Part shown: positions 1,828 through 64,000 of the stretch, piece after piece
How positions within the stretch are numbered: the stretch's first letter is position 1
Layout: every line of letters begins with the position of its first letter
Notes under the pieces: model-generated
What the model was told of the DNA's origin: nothing
Database searches by the model: none
Seen by the model: only the letters and a program-made list of their open reading frames with translations
Sequence record: NC_028448.1
From: Escherichia phage slur14
Reading direction: 5' to 3' (one strand)
Length of the DNA stretch: 64,000 nt
Translations under genes and position numbers: made by a program

Positions 1828-3287
1828 AGACCAGTTACCTCATGAAAATCACCAAATACATCCTCGAATGTATTAGCTTTAGTTTTATCTTCACGTAAAC
1901 GAATCGCAATCGGAAGAAATAATTTAACGTAATCAGTGCGGCCATCAGATTTTAACCAACCGTTGCATTCGCACTCTAGAATTTTTCCAATATAATAATT
2001 TTGGTTTTCCATAATGCGAGTACGGTCAAGTTCATGTGATTTTACACCGGCTTTATCTTTTAAGCCTGAACCAGCATTTACCTTAATTTTTCCACACTCT
2101 GACTCAAGAATAAATCCACCCGCTTTAGTAGGGTCTTTACGGTGAGGATAAATTCCTACAATTTTTAAATCAACATCAATTACTTCTTTAAATTTATAGA
2201 GATTTTTTGAACGAGCATTTTCCCATAATCCATCGATATTTTTGAGAATAATACCTTCAAGACCTTGGTCAATATACTTTTTATAAATTACCTTAGCTTC
2301 ATCTAGGTTATTTACTACCTGGTTTTCAATTAAAATTACTTTATCATAGCCTGATGTCATTTGTTCTAGTTTAGAAAAACGTACATCATATTTTAAACGA
2401 AACGCCGGAAGACCGTATATTTCTACCAACGGGACATAATCCCAGACCTGAAACTTCATGCATTGAGCTTCTTTTTCGGAAATGGTTCCCTTTAAAGATT
2501 TATTAGCGATTCCATTAGAAGTAGTACGTGATTCAGCTACTTCGGCGAATTCTTTGGCTTTACTAATTTCAGGATAAGCATCAAAAAGAAAATCTAGGCC
2601 TTCTGGCTCCTTTTTAACTTGCTCATGGTATACCAATTCGCCATCAATTAACACGCCTTCTGGATGAATCTGGCGGGCTTCAGCGGTCATTTTGATTAAT
2701 TCTTCCTTAAGAAGATCTAATCCTAGATATTCATTACCGGCTCGTGATAAAAGACGAACATCATCTAATTCATCACCTCTGACTTCGGCAAAGCACCGAG
2801 CCCCATCAGCTTTTAACTGGGCAAAGGCTGGAAATTTGATATTCTTATTAATGCCTTTTTCATCATAAGAACTTGCCAGCATTTGAGGTTGTTCAGGAAT
2901 TAAACCTGGCCAAACTTTGTTTGCAATAGATACTGAAGCACCACATTCAAGGTCTCGCATCATCACTCGACGCAAAACTTCAACATCATCTTTTTTACCA
3001 TCGGTGATATATCCAGTTAATTCCTCAATTGCTGCATTTCCAGTCAATTTCCGAGTAGCTAATGTGAATTCAATGAAGTCAAGCATATCGGTAAGAGTCA
3101 ACATTCCAAAACTCTGGGTAGCAATACCAGGTTTAGGCCATTTCTTGATATAATACTGCAGCCCACGAGAATAAGTCAGACGATATACTCGTTTAAGCAA
3201 TTCATTATCTTTATTCTTTTCAAGAATTGCTTGCTTCTGCTTAGTTGAACCAATAGATGCTATTTCGTTCAGAATTTTAAGAATCAT
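1824..3287 (-). CDS. 30: ATP-dependent DNA ligase gp30
   Basis: 487 aa; KADGAR adenylation motif (LKADGARCFAEV); length and position as T4 gp30. Confidence 0.95.
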   Translation of the reverse strand: MILKILNEIASIGSTKQKQAILEKNKDNELLKRVYRLTYSRGLQYYIKKWPKPGIATQSFGMLTLTDMLDFIEFTLATRKLTGNAAIEELTGYITDGKKDDVEVLRRVMMRDLECGASVSIANKVWPGLIPEQPQMLASSYDEKGINKNIKFPAFAQLKADGARCFAEVRGDELDDVRLLSRAGNEYLGLDLLKEELIKMTAEARQIHPEGVLIDGELVYHEQVKKEPEGLDFLFDAYPEISKAKEFAEVAESRTTSNGIANKSLKGTISEKEAQCMKFQVWDYVPLVEIYGLPAFRLKYDVRFSKLEQMTSGYDKVILIENQVVNNLDEAKVIYKKYIDQGLEGIILKNIDGLWENARSKNLYKFKEVIDVDLKIVGIYPHRKDPTKAGGFILESECGKIKVNAGSGLKDKAGVKSHELDRTRIMENQNYYIGKILECECNGWLKSDGRTDYVKLFLPIAIRLREDKTKANTFEDVFGDFHEVTGL

Positions 3288-16247: not shown

Positions 16248-18512
16248 TCATAATTTACAGGATGAACAATCTTCAGCTTTAGGAGTTTCTATTTCATAAT
16301 CATCAGTACCAGAACCATCGCGGGTATTATGATAATAGAAATTTTTTCCGCCAAAATACCAAAAATACAAAAGGTCATCAATCATTATTGACATTGGAAC
16401 CTTGCCTTTAGGGAAGATTTGGGGGTCATAGTATGTATTCGCCGAAGCTGATTGACAAACCCATTTCAGCATAATAGCTACCTGCGTAAGATAAGGTTTA
16501 TTACCTTTCTTAGCTAATTTCCATGTATAGTCGTAAAGGTCTATGTTATGCTCAATATTGGGCACGACTTGATTAAAGGAGCCCTCTTTTGATTCTTTAA
16601 CAGAGACTGGTCCACGTGGAGGCTCGATACCGTTTGTACTGTTAGAAACTTGGGAAGATGACTCACATGGCATAAGTGCTGATAATGTGCTATTACGGAT
16701 GCCAAAGAGCTTAAGGTCTTCCCGCAGCGACGACCAGTCACAAACGTATTTTGGAGCTGCGATTTGGTCAATCTTTTTATTGTACCAGTCGATAGGTAAT
16801 TCGCCTCGAGACCAACGAGTGTCTGAATAATATTCGCAAGGTCCTTTTTCTTTGGCGAGCTTAATGGATGCTTTAATGAGTCCATACTGTAATCTCTCAA
16901 ATAGTTCATGTGTTAAATCGTTAGCATCTTCATAAGAAGCAAAGTTACTTGCCAGCCAAGCTGCATAGTTAGTAACACCTACACCAAGGTTTCGACGCTT
17001 TTTAGCTTTTTCTGCTTCAGGAACTGGATATCCTTGGTAATCCAAAAGATTATCAAGAGCACGAACTTGAACTTCTGCCAATTCATTAATTTTATCTTGG
17101 TCTTGCCAGTCAAAATTATCCAGTACGAATGCAGAGAGAGTACACAATCCAATTTCAGCATCAGGACTATTCACATCATTTGTTGGAATAGCAATTTCAC
17201 AGCACAAGTTACTCTGACGAATAGGTGCCTTTTCACGAATAAACGGAGTATAGTTATTCGTATTATCAATGAACTGCACATAAATCCTTGCTGTTCCTGA
17301 ACGTTCAGTCATGAGCAATTCAAATAGTTCACGGGCTTTAATACGCTTTTTACGAATATTAGGGTCTTTTTCTGCTGCTTCGTATAATTCACGGAAACGG
17401 TCTTGGTCTTTAAAATAAGAATAATAAAGCTCGCCACCCATTTCATGCGGACTGAACAAAGTAATGTAATCGTTCTTTCCGAATCGTTCCATCATCAAAT
17501 CATTCAGCTGAACACCATAATCCATATGACGAATGCGGTTTTCTTCTACGCCTTTGTTATTTTTCAAAACGAGAAGATTTTCAACTTCCAAATGCCAAAT
17601 AGGATAATAAGCAGTAGCAGCGCCGCCACGAATTCCACCCTGTGAACATGATTTAACTGCAGTCTGAAAATGTTTCCAAAAAGGAATAACACCAGTATGG
17701 CGTACTTCACCCATGCCAATCTTAGAACCTTCAGCACGAATCATACCTACGTTAATTCCAATTCCAGCGCGTTTAGAAATATATTCAACAATTGAAGCAG
17801 AAGCTTTATTAATTGACTTCAATGAATCACCAGCTTCAATAACAACGCATGAACTAAACTGTCGAGTCGGAGTACGGCAACCAGCCATAATAGGAGTTGG
17901 CAATGAAATCTGTCGAGTAGATACTGCTTCATAAAAACGAATAACATGTTTTAATCTATCAACAGGTTCATCTTGATGCAATGCCATTCCAATAGTCATA
18001 AATGCAAACTGTGGAGTTTCATAAATTTGACCAGTGGTTTTATCTTTAACTAGATATTTTTCTTTTAATTGCATCGCCCCGGAATAAGTAAATTCCATAT
18101 CCCGCTCGTGCTTAATTTTTGATTCTAAAAATGTAATTTCTTCTGCTGAATATTTTGACAATAATTCAGGGTCGTATTTACCTTCATTTACACAGTAAGA
18201 AATATGGTCAATAAATGAACGTGGTTCATACTGTCCATAAACATGCTTACGAAGAGCAAACATTAAACAACGTGCAGCTACATATTGATAATCAGGCTCT
18301 TCAACCGAAATAGAATTCGCAGCAGCCTTAATGACAATAGTCTGAATATCATTAGTTGTCATTCCATCACGGAGATAAGATTTAATATTTTCATATAATT
18401 CATAAGGATCTACTGATGTTCCTTCAGCTGCCCAAGATAAAACTTTAATAATTTTTTGTGGGTCAAAGCTCTGAGAAACACCACTACTTTTGATAACATT
18501 AATTAATTGCAT
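16248..18512 (-). CDS. nrdA: ribonucleotide reductase large subunit
   Basis: 754 aa; class Ia R1-like C-terminal cysteine pair (EDCSSCKL); only 51 bp from nrdB. Confidence 0.95.
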   Translation of the reverse strand: MQLINVIKSSGVSQSFDPQKIIKVLSWAAEGTSVDPYELYENIKSYLRDGMTTNDIQTIVIKAAANSISVEEPDYQYVAARCLMFALRKHVYGQYEPRSFIDHISYCVNEGKYDPELLSKYSAEEITFLESKIKHERDMEFTYSGAMQLKEKYLVKDKTTGQIYETPQFAFMTIGMALHQDEPVDRLKHVIRFYEAVSTRQISLPTPIMAGCRTPTRQFSSCVVIEAGDSLKSINKASASIVEYISKRAGIGINVGMIRAEGSKIGMGEVRHTGVIPFWKHFQTAVKSCSQGGIRGGAATAYYPIWHLEVENLLVLKNNKGVEENRIRHMDYGVQLNDLMMERFGKNDYITLFSPHEMGGELYYSYFKDQDRFRELYEAAEKDPNIRKKRIKARELFELLMTERSGTARIYVQFIDNTNNYTPFIREKAPIRQSNLCCEIAIPTNDVNSPDAEIGLCTLSAFVLDNFDWQDQDKINELAEVQVRALDNLLDYQGYPVPEAEKAKKRRNLGVGVTNYAAWLASNFASYEDANDLTHELFERLQYGLIKASIKLAKEKGPCEYYSDTRWSRGELPIDWYNKKIDQIAAPKYVCDWSSLREDLKLFGIRNSTLSALMPCESSSQVSNSTNGIEPPRGPVSVKESKEGSFNQVVPNIEHNIDLYDYTWKLAKKGNKPYLTQVAIMLKWVCQSASANTYYDPQIFPKGKVPMSIMIDDLLYFWYFGGKNFYYHNTRDGSGTDDYEIETPKAEDCSSCKL

Positions 18513-35281: not shown

Positions 35282-35941
35282 ATGGCAACACCAAAAGTGT
35301 CATTTTCGCCTAGTGATATTCTATTTGGGTTGCTAGATCGTATTTTCAAAGATAACGCTACTGGAAAGGTTTTAATGTCCCGAGTAGCGGTAATTATTCT
35401 TTTGTTCCTAATGGCACTAATATGGTACAAAGGAAGTATTTTGCTGGATTATTATGTAAGAGCTAAGTATGATACTTATACTGAAATAATCCAAAAAGAA
35501 CGAGCTTTACGTTTTGAATCTGCGGCTCTAGAACAACTGCAAATAGTTCATATCTCATCTGGTGCAGATTTTAGTGCTGTGTATTCTTTCAGACCTAAAA
35601 ACTTAAATTATTTTGTCGACCTTATAGCTTATGAAGGCAAACTACCTAGCACAATTTCTGAAAAGTCCCTTGGTGGATTCCCGGTGGATAAAACGGCTAA
35701 TGAATATATAATTCATTTAAGTGGCCGTCATTTCTCATCTAAATCAGAATTTGCATTTTTGCCTACAAAATCTAAGACTGCCGAACTTTCTTATATGTAT
35801 AGTTGTCCATACTTTAATTTGGATAACATCTATGCTGGAACTGTGACGATGTATTGGTATAAGGGGAATAATATACTTGAGGAAGATCGCTTAGCGGCTA
35901 TATGCAACCAAGCGGTCCGAATACTAGGAAGGGCTAAATAA
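35282..35941 (+). CDS. t: holin t
   Basis: 219 aa; single N-terminal TM (VAVIILLFLMALIWY) with large periplasmic domain; TATAAATA late promoter at 35254-35261. Confidence 0.95.
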   Translation: MATPKVSFSPSDILFGLLDRIFKDNATGKVLMSRVAVIILLFLMALIWYKGSILLDYYVRAKYDTYTEIIQKERALRFESAALEQLQIVHISSGADFSAVYSFRPKNLNYFVDLIAYEGKLPSTISEKSLGGFPVDKTANEYIIHLSGRHFSSKSEFAFLPTKSKTAELSYMYSCPYFNLDNIYAGTVTMYWYKGNNILEEDRLAAICNQAVRILGRAK

Positions 35942-59879: not shown

Positions 59880-60089
59880 TTAAATTACATGATTATTTAT
59901 AATAAATTCTCGCGGAACGTTAAAATACCCAATTTTAGTTAATATAACAACATCGCCGTTAATAATTACCGGAGAATAATCTTCTGGAGCATTAAATTTC
60001 CAATGGGCTCTAATATTATATCCATCAGAACCAAATGCTCGACTAGCCGGTCTCCCGGCTTTTTGCCATGCATAAAAATCAAATTTCAT
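59880..60089 (-). CDS. hypothetical protein (soc.1 position)
   Basis: 69-aa ORF. Confidence 0.55.
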   Translation of the reverse strand: MKFDFYAWQKAGRPASRAFGSDGYNIRAHWKFNAPEDYSPVIINGDVVILTKIGYFNVPREFIINNHVI

Positions 60090-60283
60090 TTTGAATGCTC
60101 TATAATTAATTTTAAAGCTTCTTCACTGACAAAAATTTCGTCAGGACCTTCTATAATTTCAACCATACGAAGTTGATTAGTTAAGAGCTCACACACGAGC
60201 TCTTTGTTATAATCTTTAAATAGCTGGTCAATACGTTTCTTATGGGCTTTCTTGAGCTGGCGTTTATTTAAACTAGCCATCAA
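60086..60283 (-). CDS. hypothetical protein (soc.2 position)
   Basis: 65-aa ORF. Confidence 0.55.
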   Translation of the reverse strand: MMASLNKRQLKKAHKKRIDQLFKDYNKELVCELLTNQLRMVEIIEGPDEIFVSEEALKLIIEHSK

Positions 60284-60798
60284 TAACCTCGGTCTTGACG
60301 AGCGAAGTTTTCAGCATTTTTCAGATAATAAAGTTTAAAGATTTCTTCAGCCGACATTCCAAGAGCAATAAATTTATTCATGAAAAAGTGAAATTGATCA
60401 ATCAGTTCAAATTTAATTTCAAGCTGATCTTCGGGAGATAAATCTTGAATTTTCTTGGATTGCATTTCAGAATAACGTTTCTTCCAAGGTTTCCATACAG
60501 CAGAAGCTTCTTTTTCACCATTACTCATACCACCAAGAGAAGTATATAGCTCGCGAGTTTCATCTGCGATATAATCGTCTTGGTTTCGCAACCAAGCAAG
60601 AACTTCTCCTGCAGTTTCAAGTGAATCAGGATGACGATTTGTTTCTGGCTTATCATTAGCCAAACGAATCTGTAAATGCCGCTGCATGTCAAGCATAACC
60701 TGCAATGGGTCAATACTGTGCATAATATACTCAGCATATGCACGATTTGCTTTATCAACACCTTCGATCAAATGAGCACATTCATTAAAGTGAGCCAT
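60280..60798 (-). CDS. 56: dCTPase/dUTPase gp56
   Basis: 172 aa from ATG at 60796-60798 (MAHFNECAHLIEGVDKA...). Confidence 0.9.
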   Translation of the reverse strand: MAHFNECAHLIEGVDKANRAYAEYIMHSIDPLQVMLDMQRHLQIRLANDKPETNRHPDSLETAGEVLAWLRNQDDYIADETRELYTSLGGMSNGEKEASAVWKPWKKRYSEMQSKKIQDLSPEDQLEIKFELIDQFHFFMNKFIALGMSAEEIFKLYYLKNAENFARQDRGY

Positions 60799-60858: not shown

Positions 60859-62198
<1,340 letters not shown>

Positions 62199-62219
62199 TA
62201 TATCATCCTCAGCAATTTA

Positions 62220-62255
62220 TTTTATAATACCATAACAAGCTGAGAAAGTAAACAA
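62220..62255 (-). promoter_or_regulatory. early promoter upstream of the nuclease-like ORF and dam
   Basis: GTAAAC at 62248-62253 and TTATAATACC at 62222-62231, 17-bp spacing. Confidence 0.55.
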
Positions 62256-62297
62256 ATTTATGAAATTTGTGATAAATATTAATTTAAAGGAGGACAT

Positions 62298-62498
62298 ATG
62301 GTACAAAAATTAATGGCACTTGTTAATGCCATAAAAGGTAATAAAAAACGTATAGCTTTTACTATTTCTGCTATGGTAGGAATTTTACTCTGGAACTTTA
62401 TTTTATCACCAATTGCAATTGCGCATGGTGTTAATATTCCAGTAGTTACTCTTGATACATTCGTAGATCTAGCATTTGCTTTAGTTGGGTTAATTTAA
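62298..62498 (+). CDS. small membrane protein on plus strand
   Basis: 66 aa; strong SD AAGGAGG 5 nt before ATG; hydrophobic C-terminal half; 3' end overlaps primase stop by 4 nt. Confidence 0.5.
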   Translation: MVQKLMALVNAIKGNKKRIAFTISAMVGILLWNFILSPIAIAHGVNIPVVTLDTFVDLAFALVGLI

Positions 62499-63523
62499 AT
62501 CTTGGCATATTTAGATAGCCGCATTTTAGCCATCAACCCCTGGGCAATATTATTTTTCATATATTCCATAATTTGTTCAGGGGTTGCACCTTCCTTTCTA
62601 ATCATATCATTAACATCTTTTGATTTCCAGGGAGATTTATCCCAAAACATAACCCTTTCTCCTGCATCAACTAATTTAGTCATTCGTTTAATAGTGTCAG
62701 GGTGACGAGGTTCATTATCTAAAACCCACACTCGTCTATCTTTAAATGGAACAACTTCTAGGTCTAATTGACCACCCGTAATAGCTATACCATTTTCAAT
62801 AAAAAGTGAATCTATAGGTCCTTCTAGAACATATACATCACCATCTTTAACTCGTTCGACTCCATAGATTTTTGTTGCTTCAGGATAAGCTTTGATGGTG
62901 ATATATTTTTGAGGAGCATCTTTCTTTAATGCACGTCCTTGAAACGACTCAGCTTTTCCATTAGCATTATAAATTGGAATAACAAGACGAGGCTCAGAAA
63001 TTTCCTTTTTATATGTTCCCGGTGCTATGCTATTAACCAATTTAGGCCATTCGGTTGTAAACCAAAGATATTTCCATTTATCCTTTGGAATACAACGAGC
63101 TTTTACATATTTTATAATTGGATGGTCTTCCGCCAGTTTATCTAATCTAACACATGACGGAAGAGATTTAATTATTTTCTTCTCAGGTTGTTTAGGAAGT
63201 TCTTTAGGTTTTTCTACTGGACGACTTTTACCTTTTTCTTTTCTTATTTCAAAGATATACTCACGATATAAATCAGGTTCAAACTCCTTTAAATATATTC
63301 CGATTGGTGCATGATAGTTACAGTTATAACAATGAATATTTCCTTCATTATTATCACCATAATACCATCCACGGGCTTTATTTTGGTCGGTTTTTGAATC
63401 TCCGCAAACAGGACATCTAAACCGTAATTTAAAAGTTGAACTATTATTTACTTGTGTGAATTTAGGTAAATGAGCTAATGCACGGTATGCAAACTCATTA
63501 TCAATCCAAGGTATTGATGACAT
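62495..63523 (-). CDS. 61: DNA primase gp61
   Basis: 342 aa; zinc ribbon CPVCGDSKTDQNKARGWYYGDNNEGNIHCYNCNYH and TOPRIM-like region. Confidence 0.95.
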   Translation of the reverse strand: MSSIPWIDNEFAYRALAHLPKFTQVNNSSTFKLRFRCPVCGDSKTDQNKARGWYYGDNNEGNIHCYNCNYHAPIGIYLKEFEPDLYREYIFEIRKEKGKSRPVEKPKELPKQPEKKIIKSLPSCVRLDKLAEDHPIIKYVKARCIPKDKWKYLWFTTEWPKLVNSIAPGTYKKEISEPRLVIPIYNANGKAESFQGRALKKDAPQKYITIKAYPEATKIYGVERVKDGDVYVLEGPIDSLFIENGIAITGGQLDLEVVPFKDRRVWVLDNEPRHPDTIKRMTKLVDAGERVMFWDKSPWKSKDVNDMIRKEGATPEQIMEYMKNNIAQGLMAKMRLSKYAKI

Positions 63524-63525
63524 TT

Positions 63526-63690
63526 TTACTCTTCTTTTTCTTTAGATTCCTCTTTTTTCTTTTTAGGAATCTGTTCAGGACCTTTATTTACTACAGCACC
63601 TGATGTTGTTCCAGTAGAGATATTTTCAGGATTACCACCTGAATCTCCAGCAACCATATCTTCTTTAATAAATTCTTTATATGTTTTCAT
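63526..63690 (-). CDS. hypothetical small protein (61.1 position)
   Basis: 54-aa ORF not in track (MKTYKEFIKEDMVAGDSGGNPENISTG...KKKKEESKEKEE). Confidence 0.5.
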   Translation of the reverse strand: MKTYKEFIKEDMVAGDSGGNPENISTGTTSGAVVNKGPEQIPKKKKEESKEKEE

Positions 63691-63691
63691 A

Positions 63692-64000
63692 TTAACCTCT
63701 ATTCATAAAAGCATTAAAAATTTGGTCATCAATAGATGGAATAGCAACCTTTTCGGCATCATTTAGCAAATCATTAATTTCATCAGATATCATAACACAT
63801 GTGCCTTTATTTCCTGTAATTGTTACTGCACAATTACGAACGTTTTCTTTATCAAATTTTAGGTTAATATTTTCGTAGTGAAAATCCTTTAATGCCGAAT
63901 ATATCTTTAAAATGAAATTGTCTTTTACTACAATAAACCCAACTTCACTATTAAAACGTGGTTCATGGAAACTGTAATAAACCTTTTCATCTATGAAATC
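63692..64000 (-). CDS. hypothetical protein, N-terminus beyond window (61.2 position)
   Basis: In-frame minus-strand coding from window end to TAA at 63692-63694. Confidence 0.55.
   Translation of the reverse strand, partial: DFIDEKVYYSFHEPRFNSEVGFIVVKDNFILKIYSALKDFHYENINLKFDKENVRNCAVTITGNKGTCVMISDEINDLLNDAEKVAIPSIDDQIFNAFMNRG

Follow-up and report, generated by a model that had tools for sequence, protein, structure and literature searches.

A conserved plus-strand gene in the early block of T4-type phages is predicted to encode a small, late inner-membrane protein

We focused on a small open reading frame (ORF) in Escherichia phage slur14. The DNA analysed is a stretch of 64,000 nucleotides (NC_028448.1), referred to here as the window. 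The ORF has 66 codons and lies on the plus strand, between minus-strand genes for a nuclease-like protein and for DNA primase (gene 61). The ORF is a genuine coding gene under purifying selection. Very probably, the locus is a self-contained late transcription unit encoding a small inner-membrane protein. The gene belongs to an already deposited, uncharacterised family and is not a new kind of element. Public records label it 'hypothetical protein' or 'putative membrane protein'. The predicted product is MVQKLMALVNAIKGNKKRIAFTISAMVGILLWNFILSPIAIAHGVNIPVVTLDTFVDLAFALVGLI.

Over 1401 bp, the region matches Escherichia phages slur03, slur08, vB_EcoM_Lutter and BYEP02 at 100% identity, and it is 95–100% identical to 502 phage records. 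Hence, the window derives from a T4-type phage of the genus Tequatrovirus. An earlier, sequence-only reading had described the layout of the locus, and that description is borne out. The ORF, with the Shine-Dalgarno (SD) sequence AAGGAGG, sits inside a minus-strand early block. It diverges from the nuclease-like ORF across a gap put at about 100 bp, which measures 99 bp. The gap holds promoter-like elements for both strands: an octamer at 62271–62278 (plus) and a sigma-70-like site at 62252–62224 (minus). On its other side the ORF converges with gene 61, and the two stop codons overlap by 4 nt at 62495–62498.

Coding constraint and conservation

Length by itself does not make the ORF significant. 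The window is AT-rich and holds several spurious ORFs of 60–95 amino acids (aa) antisense to real genes. The 66-codon ORF stands apart from such chance ORFs on two grounds: the conservation of its protein across genera, and the depletion of the motif ATAAATA in the window, described below.

Pooled over seven pairs, the ratio of nonsynonymous to synonymous differences (pN/pS) was 0.20 in the called frame. This was the lowest of six frames; the other five gave 0.31–2.5. Differences at codon positions 1, 2 and 3 numbered 54, 13 and 107, with 61% at the third position (Fisher p = 2.5e-30, for pairs that are not independent). The pairwise rate ratio (dN/dS) was 0.04–0.35 in 14 of the 15 computable pairs. 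Full-length members differ in length by whole codons. Invariant or nearly so are W32-N33-F34, P38, G44 and P48, together with an acidic residue at 53 and a cluster of basic residues that precedes the hydrophobic stretch. Across genera, synonymous change is saturated, and still the protein is kept and the frame undisrupted.

Using tblastn, we found the 66-aa protein in 691 phage records at 44–100% identity, with at least 80% coverage in 685. The identities split into 501 records at 90–100% (Tequatrovirus) and 190 below 60% (Mosigvirus, Gaprivervirus and others). In annotated records, the match is nearly always listed next to the primase gene. A few shortened variants are on record, and these are mostly metagenome assemblies or contig ends. 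The sequence-only reading had named stops or frameshifts in relatives as evidence that would count against it. Instead, the ORF is intact in 685 of the 691 records, including relatives about 30–55% identical.

A profile search of 1.84 billion representative proteins returned nine at E ≤ 0.001, five of which are 60–69 aa long and roughly 30% identical. All five match phrog_2024. This is a PHROG family without a characterised member and without a Pfam or NCBIfam model. The window protein is an ordinary, full-length member that differs from the family in no respect: residues 2–66 align to positions 1–65 of the 65-position profile (E = 1.5e-31), and phrog_2024 is its sole match in PHROGs. Deposited examples, all named 'hypothetical protein', include RB32ORF030w (phage RB14), RB68_032 and ACG-C40_0031. 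Identical or near-identical proteins are already deposited for hundreds of Tequatrovirus genomes. Searches with two distant members led to T4-like phages of Klebsiella, Citrobacter, Salmonella, Enterobacter and Edwardsiella, and to JS98-type coliphages.

We compared the surroundings of the gene in Tequatrovirus, Mosigvirus, Gaprivervirus and four metagenomic lineages. At every T4-like locus examined, the gene is on the plus strand. On one side it is flanked by minus-strand gene 56, by dam or by accessory genes close to 56; on the other, by gene 61 or an additional gene next to 61.

Some relatives, Escherichia phage vB_EcoM_ESCO47 among them, carry a second copy. This 67-aa paralogue (phrog_2024, E = 2.8e-20) is immediately upstream, and spans 2805–3008 (plus strand) in each of the homologue loci that we call L022 and L024. 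The reading frames of the paralogue and the 65-aa gene share 8 nt, and the paralogue is preceded by a CATAAATA and an AGGAGG of its own. With the 67-aa paralogue and the 65-aa gene behind one CATAAATA, the pair would form a two-gene plus-strand late operon.

One family member lies outside the T4-like context. This 69-aa protein (P0081; phrog_2024, E = 5.8e-11) is encoded on a metagenomic contig (L030 4001–4210, plus strand) with no close relatives in the phage collection. Genes for a J-like tail-tip protein and for endonuclease VII precede it; the gene that follows weakly matches 'minor tail protein', with a serine recombinase gene just past that. We rejected assigning a function from this context, as the neighbours are uninformative.

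The gene is also present in T4. It is intact at 17738–17938 with two amino-acid changes, the same octamer and SD sequence, and a spacer 2 nt longer. Both NC_000866.4 and AF158101.6 leave 309 bp without annotation from dam to gene 61 (17626–17934), and this gap covers the ORF. Likewise, the records of T4, T2 (LC348380.1), JS98 (NC_010105.1) and VR20 (NC_028894.1) hold the ORF intact with no coding sequence (CDS) of the family; there is either no feature or only gene 61. In OZ209057.1, a T4 record annotated automatically, the gene is called, as phrog 2024. Of the exact protein sequences of the window and of T4, one or the other is present only in raw assemblies and has no protein accession.

Late-type signals and predicted topology

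The octamer upstream of the ORF, GATAAATA, differs from the T4 late-promoter consensus TATAAATA at position -13 only. In the record of phage Lutter it carries a promoter annotation. The locus thus has a TATAAATA-type element at -13 to -6 with one deviation, a short distance from the SD sequence and ATG; promoters of this gp55-dependent type need no -35 element. Among 22 homologue loci, 21 have GATAAATA, AATAAATA or CATAAATA about 11–22 nt before the ATG, within flanks that are otherwise unrelated; the count includes two loci in which the octamer precedes the upstream paralogue. The octamer NATAAATA is kept upstream of homologues in nearly all lineages, although the flanks otherwise differ. AGGAGG or AAGGAG is retained in every lineage examined, with spacers that vary in length and sequence.

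The motif ATAAATA is depleted in the 64-kb window. We counted 17 sites, compared with 38 ± 6.5 in dinucleotide-preserving shuffles, every one of which had at least 17. Hence, the octamer upstream of the 66-codon ORF is not background. The under-representation of ATAAATA applies to both strands, as would be expected if stray late promoters were selected against. At seven plus-strand sites, no credible ORF follows directly (13948, 25896, 33899, 35971, 51494, 58596 and 3529, the last with only a poor TTG ORF). We also searched for a plus-strand sigma-70 promoter and rejected it; the sole candidate scores 9/12, and such sites are no commoner than in shuffles.

The distance from octamer to ATG resembles that of other genes in the window, including the proven late genes t and soc. 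It is 19 nt here, 20 nt for the holin gene t (with TATAAATA), 23 nt for a gene of the tail-fibre region and 30 nt for soc (also with TATAAATA). The closest parallel in setting is soc, a T4 late gene embedded in the early region. Both genes have a TATAAATA-type octamer shortly before a strong SD sequence, among early genes near gene 56. However, soc is on the same strand as its early neighbours and the 66-codon gene is on the opposite strand. Moreover, the octamer of the latter deviates at -13 in every lineage, and its late expression is a prediction.

Position -13 is the most change-tolerant in T4 late promoters (PMC2988020; PMC1524935), and Nolan et al. describe it as poorly conserved in T4-like phages (PMC1524935). 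Of 50 listed T4 late sites, 32 are perfect and nine have A at -13; the remainder have other single deviations, with two exceptions (PMC2988020). Late T4 transcripts can have either polarity, and early and middle transcription in T4 is all on the other strand (PMC2988020). A plus-strand gene here would therefore be reachable only from its own late promoter. Hence, we strongly infer from these signals that the 66-aa protein would be made late only. The sequence-only reading had proposed a 'late-expressed membrane factor'. Conservation and hydropathy uphold a genuine membrane-protein gene with late-promoter-like and SD signals; the timing of expression stays a prediction.

Hydropathy analysis identified one clear transmembrane (TM) segment, at about residues 19–41 (Wimley-White octanol sum about -11 kcal/mol). 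The 18 residues before it have a net charge of +5, and the N-terminal helix is amphipathic. Residues 43–66 have a net charge of -2 and end in ...DLAFALVGLI; their hydrophobicity is marginal for a second span. The protein offers few sites for trypsin. AlphaFold2, run with a 24-sequence alignment, predicts helices at 2–12, 16–42 and 52–63 (mean predicted local distance difference test score, 78.6). By the positive-inside rule, the N-terminus would be cytoplasmic and the C-terminus outside; this is the likely topology, given the model and the charge distribution. Structural comparison was uninformative. A PDB sequence profile search with the 66-aa protein gave a chance match only (E = 1.5), and Foldseek searches of the model against BFVD and PDB returned family members and then noise.

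These features suggest how the unit would work. RNA polymerase carrying the phage late factor gp55 would start about 6 nt past the octamer and leave a leader of about 14 nt. Early in infection, read-through from gene 61 to the hairpin at 62332–62313 would probably end there and be antisense to most of the ORF. This antisense tail could further silence early leak of the gene. The basic N-terminus of the product (net +5) would stay on the cytoplasmic side, and a single helix at about residues 19–42, carrying the conserved W-N-F and Pro38, would cross the membrane. The acidic tail of about 24 residues (Gly44, Pro48, acidic 53) would be periplasmic and form a short amphipathic helix.

The junction with gene 61 and alternative explanations

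The 4-nt stop overlap is also found in T4, in Mosigvirus and in loci L024, L028 and L031; in L031, the convergent neighbour is a gene other than primase. In L018, L022 and L025, the overlap is replaced by a gap of 7–18 nt holding a hairpin. A G+C-containing hairpin, followed by a T-run, is on or directly after the ORF stop in L018, L022, L025 and L031. In Gaprivervirus, the homologue and primase are separated by a homing endonuclease gene, which leaves the ORF undisturbed. In Yersinia phage vB_YenM_P8 (L006 2780–3547), such a gene is inserted between the small ORF and primase. In the Gaprivervirus loci L007, L013, L014 and L017, the downstream sequence diverges from the primase junction as it does in P8. 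The insertion indicates that the 4-nt overlap is dispensable. In the window, we found no plus-strand terminator-like site between 62498 and 63700, and T4 likewise has none after the ORF. Hence, late transcripts would probably run antisense into the 3' end of gene 61. Tequatrovirus and Mosigvirus have no terminator behind the ORF; there, late transcripts antisense to the primase 3' end are probable, as a side effect or a lineage-specific extra.

The sequence-only reading had also offered a 'regulatory antisense unit'. On this account the locus works mainly as RNA: a late plus-strand transcript antisense to the 3' end of gene 61 lowers late primase expression, and the ORF is incidental or secondary. 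The convergent 4-nt stop overlap and the missing terminator would fit. In addition, T4 transcribes both strands at some sites at different times (PMC2988020). A T4 differential RNA sequencing study reports 150 phage start sites, 22 of them antisense (10.1101/2024.04.04.588121). As in convergent cis-antisense pairs and systems with type I toxin-like small hydrophobic proteins, the mRNA of the 66-codon gene would be complementary to the gene 61 read-through tail, and the reverse. Unlike those systems, the locus has no dedicated antisense RNA gene, the pairing follows from geometry and terminators limit the overlap in several lineages. Selection also speaks against a main role as RNA. The low pN/pS and the third-position excess are those of a coding sequence, and the protein motif is kept at about 30% identity. 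The transcript overlap with gene 61 is not conserved, given the hairpins in four lineages, the Gaprivervirus endonuclease gene and the different neighbour in L031. Rfam gave only chance-level eukaryotic matches at the locus. A coding signature with a non-conserved overlap makes an RNA-only function unlikely, and we consider a mainly RNA unit very improbable. The same evidence bears on the notion that the ORF is spurious, and that the region is simply the 3' untranslated region and terminator of gene 61 plus the promoter of the divergent nuclease-like gene. A minus-strand hairpin does lie inside the ORF (62332–62313), an early-promoter-like site is just upstream, the T4 reference annotation has no gene here, and chance ORFs of 60–95 aa are common in the window. 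However, the protein is conserved across genera, undisrupted, at saturated synonymous change. The ORF outlasts the loss of dam, and also a 548-bp deletion in which the promoter and nuclease gene next to it are lost. By eye, Mosigvirus lacks an inverted repeat equivalent to the hairpin, and there the ORF is still conserved. A spurious ORF is scarcely credible.

Among membrane proteins, holins invite comparison. Phage holins (class II, class III and pinholins) and T4 holin T are, like the 66-aa protein, small, membrane-embedded and late, lateness being predicted here. One UniRef entry and one Klebsiella phage record say 'Holin' or 'putative holin', and one distant member weakly matches a holin PHROG (E = 0.012). 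The tandem paralogues of some phages recall holin-antiholin pairs. Against this, the 66-aa protein has at least one TM domain but neither a charged C-terminal tail nor a significant holin profile match nor a lysis-cassette position. Its C-terminus is hydrophobic and acidic, unlike the hydrophilic, highly charged cytoplasmic tail usual in holins, and its basic patch is N-terminal. No Pfam holin model matches, and PHROGs returns phrog_2024 only. There is no adjoining endolysin, and T4-type phages already have holin T; in the window, gene t is near 35282. We also considered a holin/antiholin dual start at Met1 and Met6. This was rejected, as Met6 is not kept beyond Tequatrovirus. Identity as a holin or holin-like lysis protein is thus quite improbable. 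A superinfection immunity or exclusion factor, the type put forward in the sequence-only reading, would likewise be a small inner-membrane protein, as predicted here. T4 Imm is another small T-even membrane protein, and sp is a few genes away from the 66-codon gene. Accessory and exclusion genes are often downstream of tail-tip genes, and this is where the one non-T4-like family member sits. However, imm and sp are expressed early, in contrast to the predicted late-only promoter of the 66-codon gene. Imm has two TM helices; the 66-aa protein has one clear predicted helix. It matches neither PF14373 (Imm_superinfect) nor PF25676, nor any defence model, and PF14373 matches a different gene in a related locus. 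Proteins of the Cor or Llp type are lipoproteins that need a cysteine, and the window protein has none. Exclusion genes are expected to be patchy in distribution, whereas this gene is near-universal and fixed in position across phages of many hosts. An immunity or exclusion role is therefore improbable.

We return to the late membrane-protein unit. Several observations weigh against it, or against a specific role. Locus L018, the sole exception of the 22, has no ATAAATA upstream, and the perfect TATAAATA occurs in no lineage. G or C at -13 is rarer than A among the listed T4 late promoters (PMC2988020), so promoter strength may be low. The SD sequence of the window is only 4 nt from the ATG, which is short; in T4, the spacing is 6 nt. 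The C-terminal segment could alternatively be a marginal second TM helix. Pfam (E ≤ 1), NCBIfam and PADLOC searches with the 66-aa protein gave no match. Our literature search found no paper on the ORF and no proteomic or genetic report, and the essentiality-mapping preprint HIDEN-SEQ (10.1101/2025.11.20.689424) does not mention the locus. Finally, inner-membrane questions in T-even phages (lysis-inhibition signalling, prohead initiation and DNA passage) leave room for such a protein, and no result ties it to them. We tentatively suggest an accessory late envelope factor, possibly acting in lysis timing or inhibition or in membrane-linked assembly, through helix-helix contact with a partner membrane protein. 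A bolder version is unlikely: that the protein is a near-universal late inner-membrane component of T-even phages, so far absent from the T4 gene list. As such it might be an intramembrane partner of holin and antiholin in lysis inhibition, or might serve membrane-linked head assembly or genome delivery. If this were true, placement on the opposite strand, convergent with primase, would be a conserved device gating a membrane-active protein strictly to late times.

Flanking features and implications

Coordinates are collected in Table 1. The early-promoter-like site at 62252–62224 is annotated as a predicted early promoter in the fPS-65 record. It is an element of the neighbouring gene, outside the 66-codon unit. 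The hairpin at 62332–62313 is the sole terminator-like site within 61500–63700 and gives a modest signal (-8.9 kcal/mol, z = -1.8). The fPS-65 record annotates it as a terminator.

Table 1. Features of the locus, in window positions
Feature	Positions	Strand	Remarks
66-aa CDS, small inner-membrane protein (predicted), phrog_2024	62298–62498	+	ATG 62298; TAA 62496–62498
Shine-Dalgarno sequence AAGGAGG	62287–62293	+	4 nt before ATG
Late-promoter-like octamer GATAAATA	62271–62278	+	19 nt upstream of ATG; predicted transcription start ~62284 (T4 ~17722)
Early-promoter-like site, sigma-70-like, extended -10, TTTACT-17-TATTAT with TG	62252–62224	-	serves divergent nuclease-like gene
Terminator-like hairpin, then UAAUUUUUG	62332–62313	-	downstream of gene 61, within codons 6–12 of 66-aa ORF
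186-aa nuclease-like ORF, divergent neighbour	61638–62198	-	99-bp gap to 66-aa ORF
Gene 61 (DNA primase), convergent neighbour	62495–63523	-	
Overlapping convergent stop codons, 66-aa ORF (+) and gene 61 (-)	62495–62498	.	4 nt

The divergent 186-aa neighbour, beside dam, resembles type II restriction enzymes. Its matches are to PADLOC REase_II (E = 9e-5) and, below the curated cut-off, to Pfam DpnII (E = 0.0045). DpnII is an enzyme family that cuts unmethylated GATC. By eye, we recognise a motif characteristic of PD-(D/E)XK nucleases, D...EIK (FDIV...EIKHQ). Next to phage Dam, a gene for a GATC-type nuclease would constitute a phage-borne restriction-modification pair. The 186-aa gene occurs in 162 phage records, with identity of 95% or more in nearly all. 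T4 and most Tequatrovirus phages have lost it via a 548-bp deletion. T4 is colinear through the last 87 nt of the gene, which remain as a 3' remnant, and then jumps by 548 bp. Reading of the junction revealed an 8-bp direct repeat, TTTGTGAT, at 61718–61725 and 62266–62273. The octamer begins inside the second copy, with which it shares its first three bases, and GATAAATA remains intact. The deletion also removes the divergent early-promoter-like site from T4. We considered a functional link between the 66-codon ORF and the nuclease-like gene and rejected it: the two are found in 691 and 162 records, respectively, and the ORF persists after deletion of the nuclease-like gene and in genera without dam.

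The flank of gene 56 also varies. At about 59900–60290 of the window, the equivalent region of phage Lutter (L001) has a 'capsid and scaffold protein' CDS, apparently soc, right after gene 56. In the window, the place upstream of gene 56 is taken instead by a 65-aa ORF (60086–60283, minus strand), as in L008, with soc further on. Hence, phages that are otherwise near-identical are mosaic in this region.

T4 is the reference organism of its subfamily, and its gene list feeds functional-genomics screens, proteomics searches and transcript analyses. Where that list is blank, from dam to gene 61, T4 has an intact, conserved and probably late-expressed gene for a membrane protein, and the remnant of a lost gene resembling one for a restriction enzyme. 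Once included in the T4 annotation, the 66-codon gene could be picked up in knock-down, transposon and mass-spectrometry studies. Its family spans phages of many enterobacterial hosts, and offers a cheap, well-defined target in the best-equipped phage system.

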